NCBI GenBank assembly: GCA_963703315.1
Contig: OY969811.1
Location: forward strand, 972,728-1,036,727
Reading direction: 5' to 3'
Length of the DNA: 64,000 nt
DNA from: an uncultured cyanobacterium
GTDB taxonomy: Bacteria > Cyanobacteriota > Cyanobacteriia > Pseudanabaenales > Pseudanabaenaceae
Below are positions 10,358-60,340 of the stretch, one piece after another (position 1 is the stretch's first letter; every line of letters starts with the position of its first letter). Made by a program: the position numbers and the translations under genes. Below the pieces are notes generated by a model. That model did no database searches. It saw nothing but the letters and a program-made list of their open reading frames with translations, and was not told where the DNA came from.

Positions 10358-10398
10358 ACTGATTTTTTGAGGTGGCGAAGCCACCTCAAAAAATCAGT
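10358..10398. repeat. Intergenic hairpin, perfect 19-bp stem, GC-GAA-GC loop
   Basis: ACTGATTTTTTGAGGTGGC-GAA-GCCACCTCAAAAAATCAGT. Confidence 0.9.
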
Positions 10399-10463
10399 GA
10401 TGATTGATATAAGATGAAACTAGGCATACCGTGATTTTCCTATAGGCGATCGCACCTGCTTCC

Positions 10464-12422
10464 ATGTCATTCAAAATTCACGACGACACAATTAACCAAG
10501 TTAACCAACGCTCAGATATTGTCGATATCGTTTCTGAGCGAGTTGTGCTACGCAAAAGTGGGGCAAATTTTCGGGGAGCTTGTCCTTTTCACAATGGTAC
10601 AAATGCTACAGCGCTGACGGTGAATCCATCGCGGCAGATGTATCACTGCTTTAACTGTGGGGCAGCAGGTGGGGCAGTCAAATTTTTGATGGAGATCGAT
10701 AAGCGATCTTTTTCTGATGTAGTTTTGGATTTGGCGAAACGCTATAACGTTCCCATTCAAACTGTCGAACCAGAGAAAGCGAAAGAAATTCAGCGTCAAA
10801 TCTCCCATCGCGATCGCCTTTATGAAGTGATGGCATTGACGACAAGTTTTTATCAGCACGCACTCTATGCACCGCAGGGACGCGAGGCTCTGTCGTATCT
10901 CACCGAAAAGCGGCAAATGAGCAAAGAGACAATCCAGAAATTTCAACTGGGTTACGCGCCTGCGGGTTGGGAAACCCTGATGGGATATCTGGTGCAGCAA
11001 AAGCAGATTCCTGTAAGTTTGGTAGAAGAAGCAGGGCTAGTCGTTCCGCGTAAAACTGGGAATGGATTTTACGATCGCTTTCGCGATCGCCTCATGATTC
11101 CGATTCATGATACTCGTGGGCGGGTGATTGCCTTTGGTGGTCGCTCCCTTGGTGATGAGGAACCCAAATATTTAAACTCCCCTGAAACGGAACTCTTCAG
11201 CAAGGGGACAGTTCTCTTTGCGATGGATAAGGCGCGAGATGAAATTGCTAAGTCCGATCAAGCAATTGTTGTAGAGGGATATTTTGATGCGATCGCTTTG
11301 CATCAAGCAGGAATTAGCCAAGCGATCGCCACAATGGGAGTCGCGCTCAATGCTGACCAAATGAAGCAGTTATTGCGTTATACGGAATCGAAAAATGTAA
11401 TTTTAAATTTTGATGCCGATAAAGCAGGAATTACGGCGGCGGAAAAAGCGATCGCAGGTTTTAAAGAATTAGTTTTTAATGGAACTGTACAATTACGGGT
11501 TTTGACAATGCCCGATGGCAAAGATGCCGATGAATATCTCAAACAACATAGTGCGGATGCTTATCGCGATTTGCTCAAAAATGCACCACTATTTTTGGAT
11601 TGGCAAATCGATCAAATCCTCTCAGGTCAAGATCTTAATCAAGCCGATCGCTTTCAAAAGAGCAGTCAAGCGATCTCGCAATTGCTGAACAATCTACCCG
11701 TCGATTCCTTCTTTCGCACCCATTACATCCATACTTCTGCTCAAAAACTATCTCAAGGTAATTCCTATCTTGCATTGCGCCTAGAACAAGATCTTCGTCG
11801 TCAATTACGCAATACACGCTGGAATAGTAACAAGCCTGCTCCATCCCTGACTACAACCACAAATTCGCTGCATATTGCCGAAACTCAACTTCTGCAAATC
11901 TATCTGCATTTTCCCCAACATCGTGCATATTTATATCAAGAGATTGCTGAAGAAGAAAACATTGAATTTACACAATCCAATCACCGCTATCTCTGGCAAA
12001 CAATTCTCAATCTGCTCCAATCTAATAAAACTTCCCTTGCTGCCGAAGAACCCTACCCCGATCATCTAGTTCAACAATTACAGATTCTCTGTGCTGAGCA
12101 AGAAGAAGTGGCTCAGCAGTTACAGCATTTACTCTGGCTCGATGAAAACTCGCGCATTGGTTTATTACGTCCTCAAATTGTTGTCAGAACGGCGATCGCC
12201 AAAATCCAATACATCATGTGTGAGAAGCATGAAAAGGACTGGTTAAGCAAATATCAAAGTATTGATGTGATTGCTAATCCCGCCTTTGGTTATGAATGTC
12301 AAGCCAAAGTTAAAGAGGCAAGGCAACGTAAAGCTGAAATTCGTAAACAGATTGAAGTTAATTATCTTGATCTCTCTGGTACTGGTACTAATACGAATGA
12401 GAAGAACATTATCGAGTTTTAA
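10464..12422 (+). CDS. dnaG: DNA primase
   Basis: Zn finger CPFH...CFNC, PKYLNSPET, and TOPRIM VVEGYFD / FDAD motifs. Confidence 0.97.
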   Translation: MSFKIHDDTINQVNQRSDIVDIVSERVVLRKSGANFRGACPFHNGTNATALTVNPSRQMYHCFNCGAAGGAVKFLMEIDKRSFSDVVLDLAKRYNVPIQTVEPEKAKEIQRQISHRDRLYEVMALTTSFYQHALYAPQGREALSYLTEKRQMSKETIQKFQLGYAPAGWETLMGYLVQQKQIPVSLVEEAGLVVPRKTGNGFYDRFRDRLMIPIHDTRGRVIAFGGRSLGDEEPKYLNSPETELFSKGTVLFAMDKARDEIAKSDQAIVVEGYFDAIALHQAGISQAIATMGVALNADQMKQLLRYTESKNVILNFDADKAGITAAEKAIAGFKELVFNGTVQLRVLTMPDGKDADEYLKQHSADAYRDLLKNAPLFLDWQIDQILSGQDLNQADRFQKSSQAISQLLNNLPVDSFFRTHYIHTSAQKLSQGNSYLALRLEQDLRRQLRNTRWNSNKPAPSLTTTTNSLHIAETQLLQIYLHFPQHRAYLYQEIAEEENIEFTQSNHRYLWQTILNLLQSNKTSLAAEEPYPDHLVQQLQILCAEQEEVAQQLQHLLWLDENSRIGLLRPQIVVRTAIAKIQYIMCEKHEKDWLSKYQSIDVIANPAFGYECQAKVKEARQRKAEIRKQIEVNYLDLSGTGTNTNEKNIIEF

Positions 12423-12467
12423 AATGCTATAAGCTATAACAATCCCATTAGTTTAATTTTAAATCTA

Positions 12468-13052
12468 ATGAAACAAGCGATCGCCAATCTAGAATTAGCT
12501 AACCCCAAAGCTTTGACAGATCAAGAATTTATGTCACTGCCTGAAAATGACAATCTTTATGAATATGTGGATGGAGAGCTAATTGTTGGGGCAAATTCAG
12601 GTGTAGAGCATGGCTATTTAGCACTTACTCTCGGATATTTTTTGACTGGCTTTGTGCGTACTCATAAGCTCGGTGTGACTTGCGACTCCAGTACCGCGTT
12701 TAAAATGAAAACGGGCAATAAGCGATCGCCTGATCTTGCGTTTATTGCTAAAGAACGGTTGCAAGGATTAAAGCGCTTACCAAAAGGATTTTTTGATGGC
12801 GCTCCTGACTTAGCTGTAGAAATTATTTCTCCCAATAATACGTTTGAGGAAATCCATAACAAATTAGTAGAATATTTTGAAAATGGAACTCGCTTAGTAT
12901 GGGTAATCTTACCCGATAAAGAATGTGTATTGGTTTACCATAAACCTAAACCATCAAAGCTTTTGCAGTTAGAAGATAATCTTGATGGAGAAGATGTTAT
13001 TCCTAATTTTAGTCTTCCCTTATCAGAAATATTTCAAGAGTTATCTTTTTAA
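12468..13052 (+). CDS. Uma2 family protein
   Basis: YEYVDGEL, RSPDLAFI, APDLAVEIISP and YFENGTRLVWVI motifs. Confidence 0.92.
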   Translation: MKQAIANLELANPKALTDQEFMSLPENDNLYEYVDGELIVGANSGVEHGYLALTLGYFLTGFVRTHKLGVTCDSSTAFKMKTGNKRSPDLAFIAKERLQGLKRLPKGFFDGAPDLAVEIISPNNTFEEIHNKLVEYFENGTRLVWVILPDKECVLVYHKPKPSKLLQLEDNLDGEDVIPNFSLPLSEIFQELSF

Positions 13053-13056
13053 CTGT

Positions 13057-14250
13057 TTATTGATTAAATTTAAGTAACCAACCGATCGCCGCGCCAGCAA
13101 TTACTAACCAAGCAGAATTAACTTTAGGGAACTTGAGGAGAATGAGCAAACTCGCGATCGCCATAATAATTGTCCAAATATCAACTAAAGTTCCGCGACC
13201 TAATTCCCATGCTACGGCTGCCATCAAGCCAATGGAAGCGGCATTTACACCATCGAGAAATCCTGCTGTCCAAGTCGATTTGCGTAACTTTGAGACAAAG
13301 GGATTAATTAACGGAACCAAAATAAATGCTGGTAAAAAGATGCCAATTGTGCCAGCGATCGCCCCTAAATTTCCTGCCACCAGATAGCCGATAAATGTCG
13401 CGGTGGTAAACAAAGGACCTGGAGTAAACTGCCCGATCGCCACTGCATCTAATAGCTGTTGGGAAGTTAGCCAATGGGTGCGATCGACAAATTCTTGCTG
13501 CACAAAGGCTAACAATACATAACCGCCACCATAGAGAACGGAACCAATTTTGAGAAAACTGAGAAATACGGCTGTCCAAGTTTTGGGATGTGCTTCAGCA
13601 GCAATAGTAGCTAAAGGAAAAGGGAAAAAAGAAAAGGGGAAAAATATACTGGGTAGGAATTTATTGGATTTGTTGAACTTAAGATTGTGAACTAAAGATA
13701 CGACAAGTCCTGCGCCTAACATCAGGGCAATTTCGTTGATTCTGAGAAAATAGAGTGCTAATACTAAAATTCCTACGCTCCAAGTTGGAATATCTTTTAA
13801 GGCTGATCGCCCTAATTTCCATAATGCTTGGACGATAATCGCAATAATGACTGGCTTCACCCCATACAGCAGCCAACCCACAGCAGGGATAGTTTGATAC
13901 TCCACATAAACCACTGCTAATCCCCACACCAGCAGCATTGCAGGAATAATAAAACTTGCTCCTGCCACGATTGCGCCTAACACTCCTGCCTGTTCTAATC
14001 CCACATGAATCACTAACTCCGTTGAGTTAGGACCTGGAATCAAATTGCTAATACTGAGCAGATCCAGTAACTTCTCACGACTTAACCATTGACGTTGCTG
14101 CACTACCTCCCGTTCTATTTGAGCGATATGAGCAGCAGGACCACCAAAGGCGATCGCACCTAATTTACTAAAAACAACTGCTAAATCCCACAATTTGGCT
14201 TTGAGATGTAACGGCTCTAGTTCTAAATCTTTTTTTGTATACTCAGGCAT
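13057..14250 (-). CDS. chrA: Chromate efflux transporter (CHR family, long form)
   Basis: FGGPAAH, PGPNS, YGGGYVL and GQFTPGP repeats in two homologous halves. Confidence 0.93.
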   Translation of the reverse strand: MPEYTKKDLELEPLHLKAKLWDLAVVFSKLGAIAFGGPAAHIAQIEREVVQQRQWLSREKLLDLLSISNLIPGPNSTELVIHVGLEQAGVLGAIVAGASFIIPAMLLVWGLAVVYVEYQTIPAVGWLLYGVKPVIIAIIVQALWKLGRSALKDIPTWSVGILVLALYFLRINEIALMLGAGLVVSLVHNLKFNKSNKFLPSIFFPFSFFPFPLATIAAEAHPKTWTAVFLSFLKIGSVLYGGGYVLLAFVQQEFVDRTHWLTSQQLLDAVAIGQFTPGPLFTTATFIGYLVAGNLGAIAGTIGIFLPAFILVPLINPFVSKLRKSTWTAGFLDGVNAASIGLMAAVAWELGRGTLVDIWTIIMAIASLLILLKFPKVNSAWLVIAGAAIGWLLKFNQ

Positions 14251-14300
14251 ATTTTTTGAAAATTAGGTGCGACATACTGGGATTGCATCAATAGTCGATA

Positions 14301-14349
14301 GAGCTTTTGTAGCTGCCAATCGCTTTCTGGATTGGCAGCTATAAAACTC
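14301..14349. repeat. Imperfect intergenic inverted repeat (~20-bp arms, 8-nt loop)
   Basis: GAGCTTTTGTAGCTGCCAATC-N8-GATTGGCAGCTATAAAACTC, between divergent genes. Confidence 0.7.
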
Positions 14350-14451
14350 AAACAAATCATCTAATAGTTAATTGCAGATGAGCATACACAAAGACTTATA
14401 CTTTTTGCAGGTATCCCAGAATACTAAATAGCTTTTGCCTAAATTACAGAT

Positions 14452-15027
14452 ATGGTAGATTCGCTCAATTCACAGTCAGTACAGCATTTACAAACTTCAG
14501 CAAGTTCGGATTTGGAGCTATGTCGTCAGCCTGAGCCGATGTTTTATTACTTTGCTTATGGGTCTTGTATGTGTCCTGTGGATTTGAAGCGATCGCTTGG
14601 TGAGACAGCCCATCATTATGTGGTGGGGGTAGCACGTTTGAGTGGTTACAAACTTGGTTTCTATTACCGATCGCCCCATCGTGATTGCGGTTGTTTAGAT
14701 ATTGTCAGAGATCCAAATTCTTATGTAGAAGGGGTTTTGTATTGTCTACCGATGCGGCTAAGCGATCGCCTAGATATTCGTGAAGATGTATCGAGGGGCG
14801 GCTATCAACATGAACTGATCACGGTGACTGTTGGCAAAGATACTTATACAAATGTCAGAACTTATAGCGTGGTTAATAAGCTCTCACGCGAACTAGCTCC
14901 CAATGATTGGTATTCCAATGTAGTTTTGCGTGGTGCTTCTACCTGTGGATTAACGGAAAAATATTTCTGGCAGTTGTTCTATCACATTTATCGATTGCAG
15001 TCCTATCATCAACGTCAATATGGATAG
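14452..15027 (+). CDS. Gamma-glutamylcyclotransferase (AIG2/GGCT-like) family protein
   Basis: YYFAYGSCM, VEGVLY, LDIRE and PNDWY motifs. Confidence 0.85.
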   Translation: MVDSLNSQSVQHLQTSASSDLELCRQPEPMFYYFAYGSCMCPVDLKRSLGETAHHYVVGVARLSGYKLGFYYRSPHRDCGCLDIVRDPNSYVEGVLYCLPMRLSDRLDIREDVSRGGYQHELITVTVGKDTYTNVRTYSVVNKLSRELAPNDWYSNVVLRGASTCGLTEKYFWQLFYHIYRLQSYHQRQYG

Positions 15028-15028
15028 G

Positions 15029-15084
15029 AATAGTGCGGCGAAGCCGCACTATTATTTATAGTGGCGCAAAGCGCCGCTATAAAT
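15029..15084. repeat. Two tandem hairpins (GC-GAA-GC and GC-AAA-GC loops) between convergent genes
   Basis: AATAGTGCGGC-GAA-GCCGCACTATT followed by ATTTATAGTGGCGC-AAA-GCGCCGCTATAAAT. Confidence 0.85.
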
Positions 15085-15094
15085 GCTATAAATC

Positions 15095-16225
<1,131 letters not shown>

Positions 16226-16279
16226 TTACAATCCTTAATTTATCTACAGATGCAAACAGCCTCTAATTGTATCGCACAA

Positions 16280-17203
16280 TCATTGAGAAGATTTTAATCG
16301 ATTGCCTAAGCTGCGGTAATAGATTGTGCCAACGATCGCAAAAAATATGACGTAGGCGATCGCTTGTACTAGATAAAGCTTATCGGTATAACCGAATAGG
16401 GAACTAAGAATTACCCCCGGAAACTTTTCGGCGGGGAGGACTTTACTGGTATTCCAGACCATATTGCCAAGGATGCAGGAATGCTCACGGGCAAAATGCT
16501 CGTAATAGAAACAAATAGCTTCAGACTTGCGATCGCTTTGGGAGAGAATCCGTAAAGCCGTATCAAAATGTCCGAGGGCAGAAATTACTAGACCAGAGAC
16601 AATCGATAGCAGCATAAAGCCCATAATTTTGAAAAAGGCGCGGATATTGATTTGGATACCAAATTTAAATAGGGCGATCGCGATTAAAGTAGCTGCACCA
16701 ATGCCACTAATCGCTCCGAGGGCTGGCATAAATCCTTCTTGGAACTTGGCAGAAATAAATAAAACAACTTCAAAACCTTCGCGCAAAATCGCAAACAGAA
16801 TTAGTCCAAAAATTCCTAAGCCTGCTTTTTTACCTTTACCTAAAACGTTATTTAACGATCCTTCGATTTCCCCCTTCATAGCCCGACTCTGTTTGGTCAT
16901 CCAGATCAACATCCATGTCAGCATGGCGATCGCCGCAACACTAAATAGACCTTCGAGTAATGGCTCAAATACTGCCGATAGTTCGGGGTTGCTCGTACCA
17001 ACACTTTGCATGAACAAATTAAATAGAATACCGACGATCGCACTAATTACGAGTCCAATACCAATACCTGCAAATACCCATTTATTAAGATGCGATCGCT
17101 TAGCACGTTTGAGATATGCCATGACAATACCAATTACCAGCGCGGCTTCGACACCTTCACGCAAGGTAATCACAAAAGTAGGAAGAGTTAAACTAAAGTC
17201 CAT
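16280..17203 (-). CDS. FTR1/EfeU-family iron permease
   Basis: Two REGxE motifs (LREGVEA, LREGFEV) in a multi-TM protein. Confidence 0.93.
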   Translation of the reverse strand: MDFSLTLPTFVITLREGVEAALVIGIVMAYLKRAKRSHLNKWVFAGIGIGLVISAIVGILFNLFMQSVGTSNPELSAVFEPLLEGLFSVAAIAMLTWMLIWMTKQSRAMKGEIEGSLNNVLGKGKKAGLGIFGLILFAILREGFEVVLFISAKFQEGFMPALGAISGIGAATLIAIALFKFGIQINIRAFFKIMGFMLLSIVSGLVISALGHFDTALRILSQSDRKSEAICFYYEHFAREHSCILGNMVWNTSKVLPAEKFPGVILSSLFGYTDKLYLVQAIAYVIFFAIVGTIYYRSLGNRLKSSQ

Positions 17204-17232
17204 AAAGTTTTTAGATAAAAATTTTTTCTTAT

Positions 17233-17269
17233 CCCCCTCTCCCCTAGGGAGAGAGGCTAGGGGTGAGGG
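17233..17269. repeat. Cyanobacterial CCCCTCTCCC..GGGAGAGG..GGGGTGAGGG repeat; reverse-oriented relative at 37192-37222
   Basis: Sequence similarity between the two sites; internal hairpin. Confidence 0.7.
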
Positions 17270-17271
17270 TC

Positions 17272-18345
17272 TTAGGATTTTGCATAAACCTTAGCAGCAG
17301 CTTGTTCGTTGCCCTTAATCAGTTCCGACATATCCGCAACCGAAAGCACAGGTTTGTCTGGGGCGATCGCACTAGGATAGGCTGACTTGAGTTTTGCCAA
17401 ACTTGCCGTGAATTGTTTATGAGATTCAGGATGTTCCTTTTCCATTGTTGACGCAATGTTTTTATACAACTGCTCGACATAAATTGTGAAACCGCGTGAA
17501 TCTTGATATTCGATGATTTCTTTGATTTTGTCATTAGCGATCGCCGCCTGATATTCTGTACCCGCCGTATCGAGAATCGTATTAATCACTTGCAGTGCCA
17601 GCTTTGGTGATTGGCGTTGGGTTTCAGGAATTGCGGCGATCGCGGCATCAATACTAGCCATTGCTTCATTATATTTCGCAGCAATACTTGGATCGGTCGG
17701 CTTAGACTTAACCAACTGCTGCAAATCCATCAACACTTGCTTAAATTCTTTGACATTACGCTCCTTCAATTGACCTTCGACATCCGCATAAATTTCTTCC
17801 ACAGGATGCTCGATGTGAGGGAGCGCTTGGTCAGGTTTTTGAAGATCCAGCAATTCCTTTGCCACAATCATGTGACCTTTCATCAAACCCAACTTAGTTA
17901 AATAGTCAACATCCTTAGCTTCACCTGTTAGCACCACAGTTTCTGTGCCAACCATATCCTTGATTTGGTCAAACTGTGCCGCAGTTACCACCTTCTTTGT
18001 AACTAAATCTTCAGCCTTGGTATAGGGACGCGCCGCCTGAATCTTGTTAGATAAGCCCGCTATTCCTAACTTTGCTTCAACCTTATCTAGCTCCGATAGG
18101 ATCGCTTCATTGATATTGATCTTATTTTTGGTATGACCACTCATGCCATCTTTGTGAGACTTACTCTTAGGCTTAGATTCACTAATCGCAACAGGTGAAG
18201 TCGGACTAGTTGCAGTTGGAGTGTTAGTACAGGCAGAGATGGCGATCGCACCAACTAAAGAGAGTATGAATAACATCAAAAATGCTTTGGTCTTAAATAA
18301 AAACTGCACTAAAGATTTAAATAACTTGGTGATGATTGCGAGCAT
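17272..18345 (-). CDS. Putative lipoprotein with a helix-hairpin-helix domain and a His/Glu-rich helical domain (FTR1-associated)
   Basis: Lipobox-like ISAC, KININEA...RPY HhH-like segment, and MKGH, HIEHPVEE and EYQDSRGF motifs. Confidence 0.75.
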   Translation of the reverse strand: MLAIITKLFKSLVQFLFKTKAFLMLFILSLVGAIAISACTNTPTATSPTSPVAISESKPKSKSHKDGMSGHTKNKININEAILSELDKVEAKLGIAGLSNKIQAARPYTKAEDLVTKKVVTAAQFDQIKDMVGTETVVLTGEAKDVDYLTKLGLMKGHMIVAKELLDLQKPDQALPHIEHPVEEIYADVEGQLKERNVKEFKQVLMDLQQLVKSKPTDPSIAAKYNEAMASIDAAIAAIPETQRQSPKLALQVINTILDTAGTEYQAAIANDKIKEIIEYQDSRGFTIYVEQLYKNIASTMEKEHPESHKQFTASLAKLKSAYPSAIAPDKPVLSVADMSELIKGNEQAAAKVYAKS

Positions 18346-18385
18346 GAAGATAAATAAAAGATGAATAAATAGATAATTGCTAGGT

Positions 18386-18450
18386 AATGCAACTAATTTG
18401 CAATAACTAATTTAAATCTATTAGAACATAAACTTGCAAATAATTTGCAA
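18386..18450. promoter_or_regulatory. Candidate metal-regulator (Fur-like) operators upstream of the lipoprotein-FTR1 genes
   Basis: TTGCAAA-TAA-TTTGCAA at 18434-18450 (7-3-7), a related TGCAAC-TAA-TTTGCA near 18388, and the palindrome CTATTTGCAAATAG at 19513-19526 upstream of the MCO. Confidence 0.5.
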
Positions 18451-18451
18451 T

Positions 18452-18506
18452 AAAGAACCAAATTTTTGTAGCGCGGCTTTGCCGCGCTACAAAAATTTGG
18501 TTCTTT
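18452..18506. repeat. Hairpin, perfect 26-bp stem, GC-TTT-GC loop
   Basis: AAAGAACCAAATTTTTGTAGCGCGGC-TTT-GCCGCGCTACAAAAATTTGGTTCTTT. Confidence 0.9.
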
Positions 18507-19503
18507 ACCCCGCCACTACATCAAACAACCCCATACAGCCAGCCTCCGCGATCGCATCTTGGTGCGGATGAAACATATATTTGCCCGTAAACCGATAGGT
18601 CAACTCTAAAATATGACGCTCGGCTGTCCCCATTGTAATTACGTCGGTTTCTTCGCTAGGAGTCATGCTGCGTCCTGTGCGATAGACCTGAAACATATTG
18701 GCATGGACATGAAATGTCGCCACAGGGTCAAACTCAATCATATTAAGGACATATAGGCGCAATAACTGATTTTGCTGCACTGCGATCGGTTGTTGCATAT
18801 AGAAATGAGGCAAACCATTGAAGGCATACATCTCATTACGTCCATCCCCATCAATGTCATATCCCGCCATGATTAACACCATTTCATCGGCAGGAGGTCG
18901 CGGCGTAGGTGGATCGATAATGAACATCCCGTACAAGCCCTTACCAATATGCCGTGTTACTGGTTCCACATGACAATGATATAAATGCACACCATAAGGC
19001 ATTGCATCAAATTCATAAATAGTCGCCGCTCCATTGCGAATCGGCTTTACGCCATCCATCTCTGAGGGGTGTTCGCCATGAAAATGCAACGAGTGCGAAT
19101 GTCCTCCCTGATTAGCAAAAGCAATCCTAATGCGATCGCCTTCTGTCGCTCTTAACGTCGGACCTGGTACGCGATCATTTACATTCCAAGTAATAAAATC
19201 CGTAGAAGCATTTAACTTAACTGTTTTACTTCTAGCAGTTAGTTCAAACTCGCGCACCATGCGCCCATTTTCTTGAGTAACCTTGCCATAATCAAATTCT
19301 CGCAAAGCGGCGATCGGATTGAGTCCACTAGTTTTAATGCGTTCCTGTGAGGCAGCACTAAGATTCATCGGCGGAATCATTACCTTTTTAGGCGTATTGC
19401 TTGCAGATTTATTTGTAACTATGGGACTACAGGCGATCGCGCCTCCCAGCAGTCCCATACTACCAAGACCCCACTCTAATATTTTTCTACGCTGCCGATC
19501 CAT
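18505..19503 (-). CDS. Two-domain multicopper oxidase with a Tat-like signal
   Basis: QRRKIL signal; HSLHFH, LYHCH, TFHVH and MFHPH copper motifs. Confidence 0.92.
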   Translation of the reverse strand: MDRQRRKILEWGLGSMGLLGGAIACSPIVTNKSASNTPKKVMIPPMNLSAASQERIKTSGLNPIAALREFDYGKVTQENGRMVREFELTARSKTVKLNASTDFITWNVNDRVPGPTLRATEGDRIRIAFANQGGHSHSLHFHGEHPSEMDGVKPIRNGAATIYEFDAMPYGVHLYHCHVEPVTRHIGKGLYGMFIIDPPTPRPPADEMVLIMAGYDIDGDGRNEMYAFNGLPHFYMQQPIAVQQNQLLRLYVLNMIEFDPVATFHVHANMFQVYRTGRSMTPSEETDVITMGTAERHILELTYRFTGKYMFHPHQDAIAEAGCMGLFDVVAG

Positions 19504-19645
19504 TAACTCTAGCTATTTGCAAATAGTTCTTATTTAGGTTAACAGATTGCATAGGTATTTTAAGAATCTCAACGTTTTACAGCGATCACCCTGCAATTGA
19601 GCTTTACTCAAGATATAGAAAATTTTTAAATAAGGGTCTAACACT

Positions 19646-20479
19646 ATGGTTCAACAAATTTTATTAGCTGTCGATGGTTCAGGGCGATCGCGCGAAATGA
19701 TGAATATACTTCTAGCCCTGCCGAACTTTCAAAGTTCACAAATCAATATTCTGCACGTTATTCCCAACTCAACTACGTCGGAAAGCATCACTGAATATCG
19801 CCTTGCAGGTGAAAAGATTATCGACAGAGAAATCAAAAATTTGCGCTTGGCTTCGGGTAATACCACCGTATCCCTGCTCAAAGAAGGTGAGCCTAAAGAT
19901 GTTGTTAGCAAAGTTGCCGAAGAATTGAAAGCTGACCTGCTGATTATGGGATCGCGGGGGATGGGTCGTTTACAAGCAATTTTGGCAAACTCGGTCAGTC
20001 AATATGTTTTCCAACTGTCTGATGTGCCGATGCTCTTGATTAAAGACGACGTATATATCAAAACCATCCGTAGTGTCATGGTGTCGGTTGATGGCTCGGC
20101 TGCTTCTAAAGAAAGCCTCGATCTAGCAATTAAACTTGTTAGTGGTGCTAAGGATGTGGAAATTTTCTTAACAAGAGTTGTTAAACGCAAGGACGATGCA
20201 AATGCCACCACTGACCCTGTTCTCGCAGAAGCTAGCGCGAAACTTAAGCGTCTCAATATTCCAAGCCGATCCTTTATTGGTGCTGGGGATGTCGGTAAAG
20301 AACTTGTGAGACTTGCGGATGAATCTAATGCGAGTTTGCTACTGGTTGGTTCTGCCGATCGCCGTCCTTCGATCGCCCGTAACTTACCTGACCTCGATCG
20401 CTTATTGGGTGCATCAGTTTCTGACTATGTGCGGGTTAATGCCACTGTTCCCGTGTTGCTAACTCGCACGGTTGAATAA
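19646..20479 (+). CDS. Tandem-domain universal stress protein
   Basis: Two USP domains (LAVDGS...IMGSRGMG; VSVDGS...LVGS). Confidence 0.92.
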   Translation: MVQQILLAVDGSGRSREMMNILLALPNFQSSQINILHVIPNSTTSESITEYRLAGEKIIDREIKNLRLASGNTTVSLLKEGEPKDVVSKVAEELKADLLIMGSRGMGRLQAILANSVSQYVFQLSDVPMLLIKDDVYIKTIRSVMVSVDGSAASKESLDLAIKLVSGAKDVEIFLTRVVKRKDDANATTDPVLAEASAKLKRLNIPSRSFIGAGDVGKELVRLADESNASLLLVGSADRRPSIARNLPDLDRLLGASVSDYVRVNATVPVLLTRTVE

Positions 20480-20480
20480 A

Positions 20481-20515
20481 AAAATATGTGAGGCGCTTTG
20501 CGCCTCACATATTTT
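20481..20515. terminator. Bidirectional hairpin, 16-bp stem, GC-TTT-GC loop
   Basis: AAAATATGTGAGGCGC-TTT-GCGCCTCACATATTTT between convergent genes. Confidence 0.8.
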
Positions 20516-23663: not shown

Positions 23664-23694
23664 AAGAGAATGGGTGCGAAGCACCTATTCTCTT
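23664..23694. terminator. Hairpin with GC-GAA-GC loop after the PBP gene
   Basis: AAGAGAATGGGTGC-GAA-GCACCTATTCTCTT (one G-T pair). Confidence 0.7.
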
Positions 23695-23839
23695 AATGTA
23701 AAAAGTTTTGCCAAAAGCGCTTGACGACTGCCATAGGTGCTGTAGTATTGATTCCGTCTAATTGATTGAAACGGTGATTTACACCAATCCAATCCTGAAA
23801 AATTACGTCTTAATTTCAAGCGACATAGGAGCTACATTT

Positions 23840-27633: not shown

Positions 27634-27690
27634 CCCTAAGATTTTATTGATTTCACCGCCTACGGCGGTGAAATCAATAAAATCTTAGGG
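27634..27690. repeat. Hairpin, perfect 27-bp stem, TAC/GTA loop
   Basis: CCCTAAGATTTTATTGATTTCACCGCC-TAC-GGCGGTGAAATCAATAAAATCTTAGGG. Confidence 0.9.
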
Positions 27691-40299: not shown

Positions 40300-40316
40300 A
40301 AGACATTGTTTCAGTT

Positions 40317-40421
40317 AAGTACCTCGGCTTAATAAAACCAAGAACCCAAATAAGCGGAATCGCCCGCTTCGCGGGCGATTCCGCTTATTTGGGTTTTATA
40401 TTTAATTATGCCTACCTACTT
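40317..40421. mobile_element. MITE-like element (AAGTA...TACTT ends) with a perfect 25-bp hairpin, GC-TTC-GC loop
   Basis: Hairpin 40343-40395; right flank GGGTTTTATATTTAATTATGCCTACCTACTT. Confidence 0.72.
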
Positions 40422-40498
40422 AGCTGTGGTGAGGGCGAAGACCTTGCCACAACTAGATCCTAAAAATTTCTATAAAGTTAATTCTCAGGAGAATCATT

Positions 40499-41197
40499 AT
40501 GCTTACTATTCGCAAATCAGAAGAAAGAGGTCATGCAAATCATGGTTGGCTTGATAGTTACCATACCTTCTCTTTTGCTAGTTATTACGATCCACAGCAT
40601 ATTGCTTTTCGCTCACTGCGGGTAATTAATCAAGACCAAATAGCTGGTGGGAAAGGATTTGGAACCCATCCCCATCGTGATATGGAAATTATTACCTATA
40701 TGCTCGATGGTGCTTTAGAACATAAAGACAGCATGGGCAATGGTTCTGTTATTCGGGTTGGTGATGTCCAAAGAATGAGCGCAGGTACTGGGATTACCCA
40801 TAGCGAGTTTAATCCTTCGGCAACTGAAACTGCTCATTTATTGCAGATCTGGATTTTGCCAAATCAAGAAGGTGTGAAGCCTAGTTATGAGCAAATCTCT
40901 TTTACAAGAGAAGAGAAGCTTAACCAATTGCGACTAATTGCTTCGCCCGATGGACGCGATCGCTCGGTTACGATTTACCAAGATGCCTATATCTATGCTT
41001 CGATTCTCGAAGATGGGGCAGAAGTGACGCATCTAGTCAATCAAAATCGCTATGCTTGGATACAGGTAGCTAGAGGTAGTGTATTAATAGGCGATCGCCT
41101 ATTAACTGGTGGTGATGCGATCGCTAGCGATCAGGCTGGTGATTTAAAATTGATTGCTCAAGGTAGTGCTGAAGTTCTAGTATTTGATCTAGCTTAA
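40499..41197 (+). CDS. Pirin family protein (YhhW-like)
   Basis: SYHTFSF, GFGTHPHRDMEI, MSAGTGITHSE and LQIW motifs. Confidence 0.94.
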   Translation: MLTIRKSEERGHANHGWLDSYHTFSFASYYDPQHIAFRSLRVINQDQIAGGKGFGTHPHRDMEIITYMLDGALEHKDSMGNGSVIRVGDVQRMSAGTGITHSEFNPSATETAHLLQIWILPNQEGVKPSYEQISFTREEKLNQLRLIASPDGRDRSVTIYQDAYIYASILEDGAEVTHLVNQNRYAWIQVARGSVLIGDRLLTGGDAIASDQAGDLKLIAQGSAEVLVFDLA

Positions 41198-41243
41198 TTT
41201 ATTTTAAAGAAGTGCGGCTAAGCCGCACTTCTTTAAAATAAAT
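41197..41243. terminator. Hairpin, perfect 22-bp stem, GC-TAA-GC loop
   Basis: ATTTATTTTAAAGAAGTGCGGC-TAA-GCCGCACTTCTTTAAAATAAAT. Confidence 0.8.
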
Positions 41244-42392: not shown

Positions 42393-42423
42393 TTTAGTGG
42401 CGCGGCGAAGCCGCGCCACTAAA
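42393..42423. repeat. Hairpin, 14-bp stem, GC-GAA-GC loop
   Basis: TTTAGTGGCGCGGC-GAA-GCCGCGCCACTAAA between convergent genes. Confidence 0.85.
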
Positions 42424-42886: not shown

Positions 42887-42988
42887 AAGTAGCTAAGCAT
42901 AATTAAAAATCAAAACTAAAACCTGTGGCGCACGCTGTCCGTGCGCCACAGGTTGTGGGGTTTTATATTTAATAGCGCCCAGCTACTT
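42887..42988. mobile_element. MITE-like element with AAGTAGCT...AGCTACTT termini and a 15-bp internal hairpin
   Basis: 8-bp perfect terminal IR; hairpin 42920-42954; flank shared with 40317-40421. Confidence 0.75.
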
Positions 42989-48141: not shown

Positions 48142-49434
48142 TAGGGCAACCGCACACGTTTCTTAACAAACTAGCGAACATTTCTTAACGAGGAAAAAAG
48201 GGAGAAACGGGAGAATTGAGGATATTTAGAAAGATAAGTCCAAAATGCTAGCAACAGTCAGTCCCGTCGGATTAATCGAAACCCACTTTGGGAACTTGCA
48301 AGATCCCAGAGCAGCACACAGTATCCTGCATAAGCTACTCGACATATTGATAATCACGATTTGTGCAGTGATCTGTGGAGCCGATAACTTCGTAGCAATC
48401 GCCGAATATGGCAAAGAGAAAGAAGAATGGTTAAAGACATTTTTGGAATTAGCAAACGGCATACCGTCAGTAGATACATTCGAGAGATTATTTGCGAGAC
48501 TGAAGCCAGAAGCATTGCAAAAAAGCTTTATTAGCTGGATGGAAGCAGTCCATGAATCCACCGACGGAGAATTGATAAACATAGATGGCAAAACCCTGAG
48601 AGGAGCAAAGGAAGCAGGAAATTCGCGTAGTCTGATTCATATGGTGAGTGTGTGGTCAGCATCACAACATTTGGTATTGGGACAGCAAAAAGTGGACGAG
48701 AAATCCAATGAAATAACAGCGATTCCATCATTGCTAAAAATGTTAGCGATACGAGGTTGTGTGGTGAGCATAGATGCAATGGGATGTCAGACCGAAATCG
48801 CGAAAACAATCATCGAAGAGGGAGCAGATTATGTGTTAGCACTGAAAGGCAATCAAGGTAATCTCCATAAAGATGTGCGTGAACTATTTACCTCTGCACG
48901 AGAACAGAACTTCAAAAATATTGAACATCAGTTCTATGAAACGGTTGAGAAAGGACATGGGCGCATTGAAACTCGTCGCTATTGGACAATGGGTAATACC
49001 GAATACTTAATCGGTGCAGAGAAATGGATAGGTTTGAAAAGTATTGGTATGGTTGAATCAGAGCGCATTATAAATGGAATTATTTCTACTGAGCAGCGAT
49101 ACTATCTGCTTAGTCTTGAGAGTGATGTCCACAGATTTTCCCAATCTGTCAGAAATCACTGGAGTATTGAAAATCAACTACATTGGATTCTTGATGTTGG
49201 TTTTGGTGAAGATGCTTCGCAATCCTGCCGAGGCTATATTGCCGAAAACTTGGCTGTTATACGTCATATCAGTTTAAATTTGTTGTCAAGAGATAAAAAC
49301 AGTAAGGTCGGTGTCAAGACAAAACGTCTTAAAGCTGGCTGGAACAACAACTATCTTAAGGATATCCTGAGTACCTTAAACATAGTCGCTGTCTAAATCT
49401 CGTTAATTGTTAAGAAACGTGTGCGGTTGCCCTA
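48142..49434 (+). mobile_element. ISAs1-family insertion sequence (1293 bp)
   Basis: Perfect 28-bp TIR (TAGGGCAACCGCACACGTTTCTTAACAA) and 10-bp TSD CTTCAGGCAA at 48132-48141 and 49435-49444. Confidence 0.97.
48245..49396 (+). CDS. ISAs1 family DDE transposase (intact ORF)
   Basis: DPR...H.L, IDGK, KSNEITAIP, IDAMGCQ, LKGNQ, GHGRIE and HWSIEN.LHW.LD motifs. Confidence 0.97.
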   Translation: MLATVSPVGLIETHFGNLQDPRAAHSILHKLLDILIITICAVICGADNFVAIAEYGKEKEEWLKTFLELANGIPSVDTFERLFARLKPEALQKSFISWMEAVHESTDGELINIDGKTLRGAKEAGNSRSLIHMVSVWSASQHLVLGQQKVDEKSNEITAIPSLLKMLAIRGCVVSIDAMGCQTEIAKTIIEEGADYVLALKGNQGNLHKDVRELFTSAREQNFKNIEHQFYETVEKGHGRIETRRYWTMGNTEYLIGAEKWIGLKSIGMVESERIINGIISTEQRYYLLSLESDVHRFSQSVRNHWSIENQLHWILDVGFGEDASQSCRGYIAENLAVIRHISLNLLSRDKNSKVGVKTKRLKAGWNNNYLKDILSTLNIVAV

Positions 49435-50966: not shown

Positions 50967-51003
50967 AAAACCGAAAGGGTTGCTTTGCAACCCTTTCGGT
51001 TTT
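50967..51003. terminator. Hairpin, 17-bp stem, GC-TTT-GC loop, after pcyA
   Basis: AAAACCGAAAGGGTTGC-TTT-GCAACCCTTTCGGTTTT. Confidence 0.8.
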
Positions 51004-51004: not shown

Positions 51005-51733
51005 TTATGCTATTGAGTCAAATAACATTGAAGTCATATAACGATCAGCCCATTCTTCACCAAAGGACTTTTCGAGAACTCGCCGAGTTTTATCGTTTTG
51101 TTGTTGCTTAGCGCAATAATATTGCTGACCTGCGATCGCATTGGCAACATCCGTTTCAGAAGTTAATGGCTCGATGTTGTTAGCAATCTGACAATGAATA
51201 GTCAAAAAATCTTGAACTCTTTGCAAAAATGCTGCTTCTTCCTCGGCTCCTATAGGGCGAACAAATAAACAAAACTCAGAAAAAATATCTGCCCATTCAG
51301 GTAGAGCGCGAGGATTTGTAAATTCTATATTTTTTAAGTTGGCTAAGCTCTGTTGGTAATTAGGAGGTAAAGATTTTTCTCGATTACTAGGTGATAGATC
51401 GGCGATCGCAGCGCTAATTCCTCCACGTCCTCCTACAATATCTGCCCCAAAAATTGGTAAGGCATACTCAGGATTGGGGAACATGACACAATGCAAAATA
51501 TCTAAGCCATTACCCACCTGAGCTAGCTCTAGATGCAGCTTGCGAAATTGCTTGGTTTGATAACAACAATTTTCAATTACTAACTTCTCTCCCTCTAAAT
51601 GCCCTTCAATGTAGCCTAAGCCTTCTGGGATAATATATGGCTCAAGACTTAGATGATTTTTCCAAATTTCTTCAATGGAGTTAGCTAGTTTCTGAATTAA
51701 ATGATGTTGGCGAGTTCGCAATGATGATGACAT
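51005..51733 (-). CDS. pcyA: Phycocyanobilin:ferredoxin oxidoreductase
   Basis: [26 protein letters not shown] and [16 protein letters not shown] motifs. Confidence 0.97.
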
Positions 51734-54115: not shown

Positions 54116-54230
54116 TATAGCAAAGCAAGAGTTGGTTAGTCCAAACTAAAACCCAAGAAGCGAGTTGCGGCGCGGAGCGCCGCAACTCGCCTTCTGGTTT
54201 TGTGTCCTAAGCAAAACTTTTTTTGCTATA
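54116..54230. mobile_element. MITE-like element (TATAGCAAA...TTTGCTATA) with an internal GC-GGA-GC hairpin
   Basis: 9-bp terminal IR; hairpin 54148-54201 is related to 56973-57023. Confidence 0.72.
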
Positions 54231-55264: not shown

Positions 55265-55303
55265 CTGTAGAGACTGATAGCACTGAGTATCCTCTTAAGA
55301 AAA

Positions 55304-56938: not shown

Positions 56939-57044
56939 TATAGCTGTCGCCATTTGTATTAAAACAAATCAAAACCCAAGAAGTGAGTTGCGCCGCGAAG
57001 CGGCGCAACTCACTTCTTGGGTTCTGACTGGTGACAGCGATCGC
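56939..57044. mobile_element. MITE-like element with a perfect 24-bp GC-GAA-GC hairpin; right end replaced at a HIP1 site
   Basis: Left end TATAGCTGTCGCCA; hairpin 56973-57023; right end TGGTGACAGC runs into GCGATCGC 57037-57044. Confidence 0.7.
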
Positions 57045-59086: not shown

Positions 59087-59098
59087 TTTTTGTTCACC

Positions 59099-59149
59099 CA
59101 AACCTAAAGAAGAAAGGAGCGCAAAGCGCTCCTTTCTTCTTTAGGTTTG
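59099..59149. terminator. Hairpin, perfect 24-bp stem, GC-AAA-GC loop
   Basis: CAAACCTAAAGAAGAAAGGAGCGC-AAA-GCGCTCCTTTCTTCTTTAGGTTTG. Confidence 0.8.
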
Positions 59150-59164
59150 TTATAAAATTAGCTT

Positions 59165-60301
59165 ATGCAAATATACCTCGACCATAGTGCGACTACTCCA
59201 GTGCGTCCAGAAGTCATCGACTTGATGGCGGAAGTTATGCGATCGCAGTGGGGCAATCCCTCCAGTCTCCATTGGTGGGGCGAACGATCAACTATGGTGA
59301 TTGAGCGATCGCGCTTACAAGTAGCAAGTCTGATTAATGCTGATCCTGAGGGAATTATCTTCACTTCAGGCGGCACAGAGTCCGACAATATGGTGCTGAT
59401 GGGAATTGCGCGACAATACCGCACACCACAGCATATAGTCATTTCCTCAGTTGAGCATTCCGCCGTACGCTTGCCCGCCCAGTATTTAGAACAATATGGT
59501 TGGGAAATTACTCGTCTGCCCGTAGATCGACAAGGCAGGGTTTCTCCGCAAGATCTAGCGCGATCGCTCCGTCCCAATACTGTACTTGTATCGATCATCA
59601 CGGCTCAAAATGAAGTGGGTACGATTCAGCCCGTTGAAAAACTAGGGCAAATTTGCCGTAATGCCGATGTCCTATTTCACACTGATGCTGTACAAGCGAT
59701 CGCCAAAATGCCCATTGATGTGCAAGCGATGCCGATTGACTTGCTCTCTCTGTCAGCCCATAAGTTTTATGGCACACAGGGCATCGGAGCGCTGTACATC
59801 AATCCTGTAACTACCAAAAAGCGATCGCTGATCCCTTTTCTGCAAGGTGGTGGACAAGAGCGTGGTTATCGGTCAGGTACACAGGCAGTAGCCGCGATCG
59901 CAGGTTTAGGTCTAGCGGCAGAATTTGCCGAAAAAGAATTAGTTTCAGAATCTACACGACTCACTAAATTGCGCGATCGCTTATACACATTACTCGCCGA
60001 TATTCCCGATCTCATACCCACAGGCATAATGGGCAACGCGAGATTACCTAACCATCTCAGCTTTTATCACAAATCTATCGATGGTCGTCGCCTCGTGCGT
60101 GAAATGAATTACGCAGGGATCGCCATTAGTTCTGGTTCTGCTTGTAGTAGTGGTGCGATCGAGCCAAGTCAAATTTTATTAGCAATGGGATATTCCCAAG
60201 CAGAAGCAAGAAATAGTATCCGCCTTACGCTTGGCAAATCTAACAATGAAGCCGATATTGAATGGACATCCTTAGCCATCCACCAAATTCTTGGTCGCTA
60301 G
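59165..60301 (+). CDS. IscS/NifS-like cysteine desulfurase
   Basis: YLDHSATT, HTDAVQ, SAHKFYG (PLP Lys) and SSGSACSS motifs. Confidence 0.93.
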   Translation: MQIYLDHSATTPVRPEVIDLMAEVMRSQWGNPSSLHWWGERSTMVIERSRLQVASLINADPEGIIFTSGGTESDNMVLMGIARQYRTPQHIVISSVEHSAVRLPAQYLEQYGWEITRLPVDRQGRVSPQDLARSLRPNTVLVSIITAQNEVGTIQPVEKLGQICRNADVLFHTDAVQAIAKMPIDVQAMPIDLLSLSAHKFYGTQGIGALYINPVTTKKRSLIPFLQGGGQERGYRSGTQAVAAIAGLGLAAEFAEKELVSESTRLTKLRDRLYTLLADIPDLIPTGIMGNARLPNHLSFYHKSIDGRRLVREMNYAGIAISSGSACSSGAIEPSQILLAMGYSQAEARNSIRLTLGKSNNEADIEWTSLAIHQILGR

Positions 60302-60340
60302 CCATAAAAAAGTCGGCGCAACGCGCCGACTTTTTTATGG
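60302..60340. terminator. Bidirectional hairpin, 18-bp stem, GC-AAC-GC loop
   Basis: CCATAAAAAAGTCGGCGC-AAC-GCGCCGACTTTTTTATGG. Confidence 0.8.

Follow-up and report, generated by a model that had tools for sequence, protein, structure and literature searches.

Perfect triloop hairpins with inverting loops and concertedly evolving arms in the genome of a cyanobacterium of the family Pseudanabaenaceae

Introduction

A stretch of 64,000 nucleotides from the genome of an uncultured cyanobacterium of the family Pseudanabaenaceae (assembly GCA_963703315.1, contig OY969811.1, positions 972,728 to 1,036,727, forward strand) contains numerous intergenic hairpins with mostly perfect stems and 3-nt loops in a GC-N3-GC centre. 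This raises the question how such palindromes arise, and what keeps their arms exactly complementary. The initial annotation of this stretch proposed that one arm is re-copied from the other, or that the hairpins are selected or processed at the level of DNA, for instance as substrates of a HUH/RAYT transposase. The whole stretch is termed the window in the following (C1:972728-1036727 of G000, the genome under study, which is a single contig of 4.57 Mb with 42% G+C and 8,231 copies of the highly iterated palindrome HIP1 (GCGATCGC)).

Hairpins of this type are abundant throughout the genome and many belong to repeat families, one of which shares its terminal repeats with a resident insertion sequence (IS) of the IS630 family. 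Within the families the loops are inverted, the arms evolve in concert, and a bulge has been repaired by templated changes. The constraint is symmetric with respect to transcription; the hairpins lie next to stop codons and turn over between species. As a rather probable explanation, we propose that palindromes derived from mobile elements, together with unique hairpins at gene ends, are kept perfect by template switching between their arms.

Abundance and structure of the hairpins

The genome-wide scan for inverted repeats suggested in the initial annotation yielded 1,213 hairpins in which a perfect stem of 10 bp or more encloses a 3-nt loop, which is far above chance (3 in an order-3 Markov genome of the same length). 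Loop lengths of 3 and 1 nt predominated genome-wide and 4-nt loops were found only 78 times, corresponding to a 15:1 preference for 3-nt over 4-nt loops. Stems reached 36 bp. The loop was closed by a C:G pair in 98% and the next pair was G:C in 87% of the hairpins.

Classification was based on those hairpins whose stems measure 12 bp or more (1,164). The most frequent loops in this set were GAA/TTC (339), AAA/TTT (336), GTA/TAC (129), GCA/TGC (112) and GGA/TCC (65); GAA, AAA, GTA, GCA, GGA or their complements (the R-N-A class) accounted for 84% of the loops. A GC-GNA-GC centre on one strand was present in 55% of the hairpins. This centre corresponds to the consensus of the very stable DNA mini-hairpin d(GCGNAGC), and the closing C:G pair followed by G:C is arranged as in the mini-hairpin, whereas the 29% of hairpins with AAA/TTT loops depart from it. 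The extraordinary stability of d(GCGNAGC) was reportedly described by Hirao and co-workers and, in 1997, by Yoshizawa et al.

Repeat families and their shells

Stems that mostly differ from each other, as described in the initial annotation, are indeed found inside the window. Their designation as unrelated does not extend to the genome, where only 284 of the 1,164 hairpins were unique in stem and flanks. The flanks were repeated elsewhere on both sides in 158 cases and on one side in 310; another 410 hairpins were naked, with a stem that was repeated elsewhere. About 100 hairpins without any BLAST relative were still triloops with perfect stems of up to 31 bp and mostly GC closing pairs.

Six families, A to F, were obtained by clustering. 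Their stems are AAAACCCAAAAGAGAGTTGCGGCGC with a 25-nt arm (A), CCAAAACCTGTGGCGCACGC with 20 nt (B), AGCTTGTGCCGCCCGC (C), CAAAACTAAAAATGGC (D), GGATTGTTTCCCCGCC (E) and TAAAGAACCAGATTTTTTGTGGCGCGGC (F; 78 copies, including the element at 18451 of the window), and these families account for the stem-length modes at 16, 20 and 25 bp. Single-linkage clustering of stems plus flanks chained nearly all hairpins together and was not used for family counts.

Family A forms the centre of a transposable element of the miniature inverted-repeat type (MITE) of about 113 bp, consisting of TATAGCTGTAGTCAGTTATGTTAGGACAAAACC, arm, loop, arm and ATGTCTTAACTTGCTTGGCTATGGCTATA. The similarity between copies of this element (MITE-A) ends at the outer TA, and 35 copies bear the shell. 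The ends of MITE-A, TATAGCTGTAGTCAGTTATGTTAGGACA and ...GTCTTAACTTGCTTGGCTATGGCTATA, match the terminal inverted repeats of a resident 960-bp IS630-family element (PF13358), which is present in 4 copies and has the ends TATAGCTATAGCCAGCTAGGTTAGGACA and ...CCTAACTTGACTGGCTATAGCTATA, also written ...GTCCTAACTTGACTGGCTATAGCTATA. Both the IS and MITE-A open and close with TA, where the similarity among their copies ends. This TA may be a target-site duplication or a part of the terminal repeat, the two being distinguishable only at an empty site resolved to the base. The IS630-family element itself carries no triloop hairpin. Its copies (G000:C1:1063896-1064855 and three others) form two pairs that are 98.4% identical to each other. 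Since the open reading frame (ORF) with the PF13358 match comprises just 181 aa, the transposase may be split or made by frameshifting. The IS of the window at 48142-49434 was rejected as a MITE partner; it is an ISAs1/IS4-type DDE element with unrelated ends.

Family B is an element of about 105 bp with the ends TAAGTAGCTGGGC...GCCCAGCTACTTA (MITE-B), and TA-bounded shells were also found in families C, E and part of F. All 35 MITE-A shells are occupied, each by a core of 52-58 nt in the same register.

MITEs of the IS630/Tc1 type are known from bacteria including cyanobacteria, where Nezha is one example (Zhou et al. 2008; reviewed in PMC3184786). Like these and the Correia elements of Neisseria, family A is noncoding, about 113 bp long and intergenic, has TA ends and terminal repeats matching a resident IS630 element, and occurs in tens of copies at sites that are filled in some species and empty in others. 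It differs in that a perfect palindrome of other origin than the IS makes up more than half of the element, that the same type of core occurs in several unrelated shells and naked, and that the core evolves in concert and flips its loop.

Loop inversion and concerted evolution of the arms

The asymmetric shells of the MITEs fix the orientation of every copy and serve as a neutral clock. When all 35 MITE-A copies were read in one shell orientation, their loops were GAA or TTC, AAA or TTT, GTA or TAC, and GGA or TCC, and flipped loops also occurred inside a near-identical MITE-A subfamily. In the frame fixed by the shell, the two orientations were about equally frequent over five families, with the following counts:

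Family A, GAA/TTC 10/10
Family B, TGC/GCA 18/18 (GCA/TGC 27/15 by a second method)
Family C, GTA/TAC 15/10
Family D, GTA/TAC 5/12
Family E, GAA/TTC 7/11

Moving double-stranded DNA, a DDE transposase has no means of inverting a 3-nt loop inside it; the flips are therefore events separate from transposition. Judged against the sequence divergence of about 1-2%, loop flipping is fast.

The arms were compared with expectations derived from the shells. In arm-ascertained families, the statistic of private variants suffers from saturation of the variant space; it was replaced by shell-anchored ascertainment. The core of 31 MITE-A copies contained 3 unpaired positions, compared with about 27 expected from 0.0177 private substitutions per shell site, and 18 mirrored variants (5 of them private), compared with about 0.1 expected. 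Among 41 MITE-B copies, 42 unpaired core positions were found against about 123 expected (19 against about 98 in the inner 16 bp), together with 34 mirrored variants (8 private) against about 1.5 expected. Single-arm differences were thus 3-9 times rarer, and mirrored double changes 20-200 times commoner, than the shells predict. The loop was the most variable part of MITE-A (nucleotide diversity pi 0.31 vs 0.045 for the arms), yet it was confined to R-N-A. The 78 copies of family F were nearly all distinct and still paired.

An asymmetric CTCT bulge beside the core of MITE-B was deleted in 3 copies, resulting in a perfect stem of 27-28 bp, and in 1 copy the exactly complementary AGAG was gained on the opposite arm. 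Read from these copies, deletion and insertion are both outcomes expected of resynthesis of an arm on its partner arm.

Ordinary single-arm decay, which had been named as one of two findings that together would speak against arm copying, does occur but is far too rare: 101 hairpins genome-wide had a single mispair, of which 93 were of the transition type. Ordinary single-arm transitions were likewise visible when copies were ascertained by arm sequence, and some mirrored variants then marked amplified subfamilies. On these counts hairpins decay, but correction outruns decay. The deficit of single-arm changes, the excess of mirrored ones, the loop flips and the bulge corrected from the opposite arm all agree with the earlier proposal that one arm is re-copied from the other.

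Loop and mispair statistics were also symmetric with respect to the transcribed strand, which bears out the second part of this proposal, selection or processing at the DNA level. In tandem contexts, read in the sense of the upstream gene, GAA was found 88 and TTC 87 times, and purine-type loops summed to 270 vs 235. Single mispairs on the sense strand were of the G:U type in 22 and of the A:C type in 28 cases. Since neither loop orientation nor mispair type is biased, the constraint on pairing and loop is strand-symmetric. This symmetry is the one observation that suggests hairpin formation by DNA in vivo.

Proposed mechanism

Palindromes would be supplied by two sources. The first would be small non-autonomous mobile elements with a palindromic centre, as in family A with its IS630 terminal repeats; families B, C, E and F possess TA-bounded shells of their own or consist of naked palindromes of about 40-57 bp. 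Unique hairpins at gene ends would be the second source. DNA synthesis would then switch template between the arms, in that the nascent strand folds back on itself or synthesis jumps to the opposite strand. A new mutation in a single arm would be erased or copied onto the partner arm, bulges would be removed and the stem lengthened, and the 3-nt loop would be inverted so often that its orientation becomes random. This process probably nucleates at the very stable GC-GNA-GC mini-hairpin, and nucleation at the triloop would account for the convergence of all families on this centre. Hairpins would persist just past stop codons, chiefly between convergent genes, where they are tolerated, and about half of them could plausibly act as bidirectional terminators or 3'-end protectors. 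We infer that the agent is template switching during replication or repair, not a dedicated enzyme.

Correction of quasi-palindromes by intra- or inter-strand template switching was reportedly described by Ripley in 1982 and by the Lovett laboratory, and has been demonstrated by experiment. Genomic evidence for the correction of inverted repeats by template switching was presented for Proteobacteria (Lavi et al. 2018, PMC5941160), and the same process was proposed to maintain RNA hairpins (PMC8794818). In common with these cases, imperfect repeats are perfected here, single-arm changes are erased or mirrored, bulges are lost by deletion or templated insertion, and no enzyme encoded by the element is needed. 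The present case differs in its extent (about 1,200 loci in one genome, stems of up to 36 bp), in the near-invariant GC-N3-GC centre, and in a saturated loop inversion that was measured inside mobile-element shells; here the process is deduced from sequence comparison.

In-place inversion of a hairpin loop has a counterpart in plastids, which descend from cyanobacteria. Small ('minute') inversions in plastid noncoding DNA were reportedly described by Kelchner and Wendel in 1996 and by Kim and Lee in 2005. Hairpin-associated small inversions in plastid DNA (PMC12371153) resemble the flips in that the loop is reverse-complemented in place, stem and flanks are kept, and recurrence is frequent. 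Unlike them, the flips reside in a free-living cyanobacterial chromosome and in transposable-element repeats, and the 3-nt loop is confined to R-N-A. No report of loop flipping of this kind in cyanobacteria was found in the literature searched (Elhai et al. 2008 was outside that scope).

The same data may be read in another way, in which the palindromic core is an independent tiny mobile module that an unidentified enzyme inserts in either orientation, including into the centres of MITE shells. Copies would be born perfect, each made from one arm or from a hairpin intermediate, and the module would be likened to the small dispersed repeats (SDRs) of heterocystous cyanobacteria. SDR4-6 (Elhai et al. 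2008, Genome Res 18:1484; cited in PMC3733652) are reportedly very small, untagged palindromic repeats that are apparently mobile and for which no enzyme is known; the genus studied here is non-heterocystous, and the likeness is drawn from the cited description, not from sequence. A mobile core would explain why one type of shell can carry different cores, such as the B-type shell at 40312-40426 with its unique core, why 410 repeated hairpins have no shell, and why three species have three unrelated hairpins at one gene end; insertion in random orientation would also give both loop orientations in a fixed shell. However, none of the 35 MITE-A shells is empty and all hold their 52-58-nt core in register, and variants within a shell family are graded point differences, not swaps. 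Correction of the bulge draws on shell sequence, so that palindrome and shell interact in place, and orthologous hairpins persist with mirrored changes. A candidate enzyme was not found, RAYT being excluded (see below). We consider an independent mobile core improbable and retain template switching between the arms as the preferred explanation.

Relation to REP sequences

Short intergenic palindromes of high copy number (about 1,200 here) call to mind repetitive extragenic palindromes (REPs) and their doublets (REPINs), and a substrate of a HUH/RAYT transposase had been considered for the hairpins from the outset. In such a system a single RAYT, a HUH Y1 transposase, would cleave the hairpins and disperse them as single-stranded DNA. 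The search for RAYT genes that had been advised revealed one gene in the genome (NF047646, 85 bits vs a cut-off of 80), with the HuH motif PDHLHG and the Y motif YIKNNP:

348753-349280 of C1 in G000 (1285-1815 in locus L013), RAYT gene, outside the window

A single copy is usual for RAYTs, and cyanobacterial RAYT subclasses and GTAG-tagged REPs are known (PMC6006769, PMC3733652). Several observations nevertheless disagree with a role of this gene in the dispersal of the hairpins. Neither a GTAG nor a CGTC tag, nor any other conserved unpaired flank, was found in the flanks of 1,072 oriented hairpins, the commonest tetramers being AACC/GGTT with 4-6%. There was no triloop hairpin in the 3.3-kb RAYT locus, and the gene is adjoined by long-loop repeats instead. 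In other members of the genus, the RAYT orthologue contains an in-frame stop (TGA) in G006, G013 and G016 and is missing from G003, G010 and G012. Hairpins occur at similar density in G006 and G013, and hairpin families in G010 and G012; G003 has 5 matches, at least 2 of which are hairpin copies, and G016 has 5 matches, at least 2 of them to the hairpin segment. A replication-strand bias of loop orientation was absent along the chromosome, where the GC skew is uninformative and cannot be used to define replichores.

With tag, flanking repeats and co-occurrence across the genus all failing, the RAYT/REP hypothesis was rejected, and dispersal of the hairpins by this RAYT appears highly improbable. 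Compared with published REP/REPIN-RAYT systems (Nunvar 2010; Bertels & Rainey 2011, PMC3116915; PMC3733652; PMC6006769), the hairpins share GC-clamped short intergenic palindromes in hundreds of copies, a frequent position at gene 3' ends, and a RAYT gene in the genome. They differ by the missing GTAG/CGTC tag, by a RAYT that is associated with other repeats and does not co-vary, by perfect stems in place of conserved bulges, and by the lack of a doublet (REPIN) organisation.

The RAYT gene is flanked on both sides by composite repeats of about 120 nt, GGGGCAGAGCATTCCCG...CGGGAATGCTCTGCCC and GGGTAGAGCATTTGC...GCAAATGCTCTACCCCTAC, with long loops and about 20-40 genomic copies. Together they probably form a separate, genuine REP/RAYT system.

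Genomic position and terminator-like architecture

Of all hairpins 96% were intergenic, with a median distance of 13 nt to a stop codon. A hairpin was present in 53% of convergent, about 33% of tandem and about 31% of called divergent spacers; gene calls were crude, which bears on the figure for divergent spacers. Among 490 hairpins in tandem spacers, 190 fell into the decile that adjoins the upstream stop, compared with 7 in the last one. Given that only 22% of the transcription units of Synechococcus elongatus end at canonical terminators (PMC12642595), hairpins at roughly one third of gene ends would be unusual for the phylum.

A T-tract after a GC stem of 5-16 bp was found on both strands in 582 of the 1,164 hairpins (50%), more often in convergent (62%) than in divergent spacers (44%). 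The inverse architecture, with an A-tract instead, was found in 209 (18%), including family F and the hairpin at 10358, and neither tract in 373 (32%). The initial statement that the stems are longer than terminators need is correct in part only: in half of the hairpins the outer pairs are the A- and T-tracts of bidirectional terminators. A simple terminator scan of positions 1-20000 of the window yielded 21 sites compared with 16.9 in shuffled sequences, and included only the hairpins at 1361, 15029 and 18451, which makes it a poor guide to this class. Judged by architecture, a subset of hairpins may plausibly terminate transcripts or protect their 3' ends. Bidirectional intrinsic terminators (Ju et al. 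2019, cited in PMC12642595) are similar to about half of the hairpins in having a GC-rich stem between A- and T-tracts, a few nucleotides past the stop codons of convergent genes. The hairpins differ in their much longer, perfect stems, in triloops instead of tetraloops, and in tracts that are reversed in 18%.

Hairpins could accordingly be viewed as plain RNA-level bidirectional terminators or 3'-end stabilisers, whose perfection stems from youth and from purifying or compensatory selection on RNA, without any copying of arms. This fits their position next to stop codons and between convergent genes, the T-tracts in half of them and their enrichment in convergent spacers, and the presence of a hairpin after ureC in almost all species despite sequence turnover. 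Bidirectional use would, in addition, forbid G:U pairs and thereby mimic symmetry at the DNA level. Selection on point mutations, however, yields no exactly complementary 4-nt insertion opposite a bulge, and private mirrored changes exceed chance 20-200 times while unpaired positions are depleted only 3-9 times. The 50:50 inversion of loops within fixed shells remains unexplained by selection on RNA, and tandem contexts show no preference on the sense strand for GNA loops or for G:U over A:C. An A-tract stands on the 3' side in 18%, and stems of 25-30 bp exceed any need of a terminator. Selection on RNA as the sole cause is considered unlikely, and template switching between the arms is again preferred.

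Hairpins of the window

All 17 hairpins listed in the initial annotation were recovered, and 14 of them had perfect arms of 11-27 bp, in line with the claim that most arms are perfectly complementary. The three mispaired ones are 15054-15084 (one T:G), 23665-23693 (one G:T) and 54149-54201 (inner 14 bp perfect). The 3-nt loops were confirmed as well, with the exception of 41197, which can also be read with a 1-nt loop. Six further hairpins had escaped the first list (30929, 32340, 42920, 43774, 43810 and 63120). Of 18 window hairpins that were checked, 17 are no more than 44 nt away from a stop codon that ends a long ORF, and 8 of the 15 perfect window hairpins have relatives elsewhere in the genome. 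The following features were recorded, none of them with an assigned strand:

1361..1395, perfect 16-bp hairpin, loop AAA, A-tract/T-tract type, 6 nt past the stop of ORF 3-1355
10358..10398, perfect 19-bp hairpin, loop GAA, stem unique, 32 nt past the ureC stop; architecture inverse (T-tract 5', A-tract 3')
15029..15084, hairpin pair between convergent genes: 15029-15053 (11 bp, GAA) and 15054-15084 (14 bp, AAA, the T:G mispair)
18451..18507, family-F hairpin (78 copies; family also present across the genus) with a perfect stem of 27 bp and the loop TTT; ORF 18505-19503(-) takes its stop codon from the outer TTA
20481..20515, perfect 16-bp hairpin, loop TTT, stem unique, occupying the whole spacer of convergent genes
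23665..23693, 13-bp hairpin with the G:T mispair, loop GAA, stop codon 5 nt upstream
27634..27690, perfect 27-bp hairpin, loop TAC, stem unique, overlapping a stop codon
33614..33662, perfect 23-bp hairpin, loop GCA, family-A-related stem (AACCC...GTTGCGCC)
40312..40426, element with a MITE-B-type shell (TAAGTAG...ATTAAAT... terminal repeats) and a unique perfect 25-bp core at 40343-40395, loop TTC
41197..41243, hairpin with a perfect stem of 22/23 bp and the loop TAA (formally 1 nt); its first base falls at the stop codon that ends ORF 40499-41197
42393..42423, perfect 14-bp hairpin, loop GAA, family-F-type core (GTGGCGCGGC), flanked by convergent genes
42920..42954, hairpin with a family-B core (AACCTGTGGCGCACG), closing pair broken, resulting in a 5-nt loop
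43774-43796, second family-B remnant
50967..51003, hairpin with a perfect stem of 17 bp and the loop TTT; 2 nt separate it from the stop of ORF 51005-51733(-)
54116..54230, MITE-A-like copy of 115 bp with TATAGC...GCTATA ends between convergent genes; family-A core at 54149-54201, inner 14 bp perfect, loop GGA
56939..57032, element that combines a one-sided MITE-A shell (TATAGCTGTCGCC...) with a family-A core (56973-57023, 24 bp perfect, loop GAA); the sole hairpin of the first list that does not adjoin a long ORF's stop codon
59099..59149, perfect 24-bp hairpin, loop AAA, stem near-unique, 13 nt past a stop codon
60302..60340, perfect 18-bp hairpin, loop AAC, occupying the whole spacer of convergent genes
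63120..63169, perfect 23-bp hairpin, 4-nt loop AAAA, HIP1 (GCGATCGC) in both arms

In an Rfam search of the window no hairpin was covered by a family. The sole match was 5_ureB_sRNA at 8769-9055 (-), with 116 bits and full length, antisense within the 5' part of the urease ORF 8614-10326, which was called ureC without a family search. Because this coding region is so conserved, the match probably reflects a family seed that is antisense urease sequence, not a cyanobacterial small RNA.

The ISAs1/IS4-type element at 48142-49434 encodes a 383-aa DDE_Tnp_1 transposase and has the terminal repeats GGCAACCGCACACGTTTCTTAACAA. At least 7 copies were found in G006, at 95% identity compared with 80-90% for housekeeping genes, which suggests recent exchange or recent activity.

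Comparison with other cyanobacteria

Perfect hairpins with 3-nt and 1-nt loops were counted in sections of other genomes. Within the genus, 23 and 10 were found in G006 (140 kb), 25 and 7 in G002 (80 kb), and 14 and 6 in G013 (80 kb). In 80 kb each from three other families, G021 had none, G024 had 1 and 1, and G026 had 3 and 0. At loci L046-L049 of G026, hairpins with a ...GCGC-GTA-GCGC... centre and GGTGG-rich arms were observed (3 with 3-nt and 7 with 5-nt loops in 80 kb); a weaker form of the phenomenon may thus exist outside the genus.

The nearest relatives share genes of 80-90% identity in scrambled synteny. A comparison of orthologous hairpins for compensatory changes, as the initial annotation had advised, showed that the counterpart of 27634 in G006 differs at about 10 arm positions, mirrored in both arms, and has a looser centre. 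The G006 counterparts of 10358 and 23665 are less perfect near the loop: that of 10358 is related, has two mispairs and lies further downstream, and that of 23665 has kept the outer stem, but its loop measures 7 nt and replaces the GGGTGC-GAA-GCACCT clamp of G000. No counterpart was found in G006 for 15029/15054, for 18451 (orthologous site empty) or for 20481, and the MITE-A-like copy at 54116-54230 is absent from the orthologous spacer of G006. The gene ends at 59099, 60302 and 63120 carry three unrelated hairpins in G000, G006 and G007. Downstream of ureC, a hairpin occurs within about 150 nt in almost all of 23 species, and these hairpins are mostly unrelated to each other; the presence of some hairpin after ureC is conserved while its identity turns over.

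Other intergenic sequences were conserved between the relatives. A 48-nt block at about 23715-23762 (CAAAAGCGCTTGACGACTGCCATAGGTGCTGTAGTATTGATTCCGTCT) is identical in G000 and G006, and the flanking intergenic DNA cannot be aligned. It contains TTGACG, 17 nt and TAGTAT, lies upstream of ORF 23762-24118 and is probably a conserved promoter or small-RNA start. At about 27585-27625, directly beside the fast-evolving hairpin 27634, the block TCCAGAATGTATATTATGCAATGACTTGCGAT is conserved in G000, G006 and G007. In the region 12423-13060, ORF 12468-13052 (194 aa) separates two blocks that adjoin each other directly in G006 (G006:C1 3684489/3684495), so that a gene was either inserted in G000 or deleted in G006.

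A further family with 4-nt loops and arms of C and T only was found in G006 (C1, about 153900-154150, and loci L031 and L032), with hairpins such as CCCCTCTCC-CGCA-GGAGAGGGG and CCCCTTCTCC-TGCG-GGAGAAGGGG. Similar units, CCCCCCTT...AAGGGGGG, occur in G001. This repeat class is distinct from the triloop hairpins.

Evaluation of the proposed mechanism

Several points weigh against template switching between the arms, or limit what it accounts for. Flip and conversion events were not directly seen, and a test of paralogous sites returned only IS copies abutting unrelated hairpins. The compensated variants are partly amplified subfamilies, so the rate of conversion is only roughly bounded, and ectopic conversion between oppositely oriented copies could be an alternative source of flips. 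The 15:1 preference for 3-nt over 4-nt loops is not obviously explained by template switching, and the near absence of hairpins in the three other cyanobacterial families sampled indicates that some lineage-specific factor is missing from the account. Movement of the naked hairpins (410 of 1,164) is unaccounted for. As to function, a terminator role cannot be general in view of the 18% of hairpins with inverse architecture and the 32% with no T-tract; about 31% of the spacers called divergent hold a hairpin as well, though gene calls were crude.

Loop preference and lineage restriction would both be explained if the genus had a dedicated, enzyme-assisted pathway that recognises DNA hairpins or cruciforms capped by GC-(R-N-A)-GC, flips their loops, re-templates their arms and extends palindromes into unique flanks. 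Gene-end terminators would in that event be made and renewed by a palindrome generator at the DNA level, not by point mutation. We regard such a pathway as a speculative and improbable extension. A genus-specific second SbcD-like nuclease paralogue, or an unrecognised nuclease or recombinase, would be a candidate for it. SbcD-family nucleases are encoded by two genes (about 440 aa and about 390 aa) in nearly every genome of the genus and by one gene above cut-off in most other cyanobacterial families sampled; the second gene may be relevant to hairpin processing. Loss of SbcCD as a cause of palindrome tolerance was rejected, SbcD being present in two paralogues.

Biological meaning

The ingredients of the system are already known, namely MITEs, REP-like palindromes, quasi-palindrome correction, plastid minute inversions and the GNA mini-hairpin. 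Their combination and scale, the convergence of several families on a GC-(R-N-A)-GC centre, and flip-flop and arm conversion measured inside cyanobacterial transposable-element shells appear to be undescribed in the literature searched (Elhai et al. 2008 lying outside it).

The repeat families offer a natural experiment on how perfect hairpins are made and kept. Because the nonpalindromic shells provide an internal clock and a frame of orientation, loop inversion and arm conversion become countable and are not just inferred. Concerted evolution at the DNA level extends to about 1,200 loci of a single bacterial chromosome, and the GC-GNA-GC motif is favoured on DNA whichever strand is transcribed. 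The 'minute inversions' of plastid phylogenetics, which are both used and feared as markers, are thereby connected to cyanobacterial relatives. As hot spots of non-independent substitutions, the hairpins will mislead tests of RNA covariation and strain typing based on single-nucleotide polymorphisms. For the organism and its relatives, the findings bear on the question how cyanobacteria terminate transcription (PMC12642595): in this Rho-less phylum, the hairpins at gene ends are here largely supplied by mobile palindromes and turn over fast between species.

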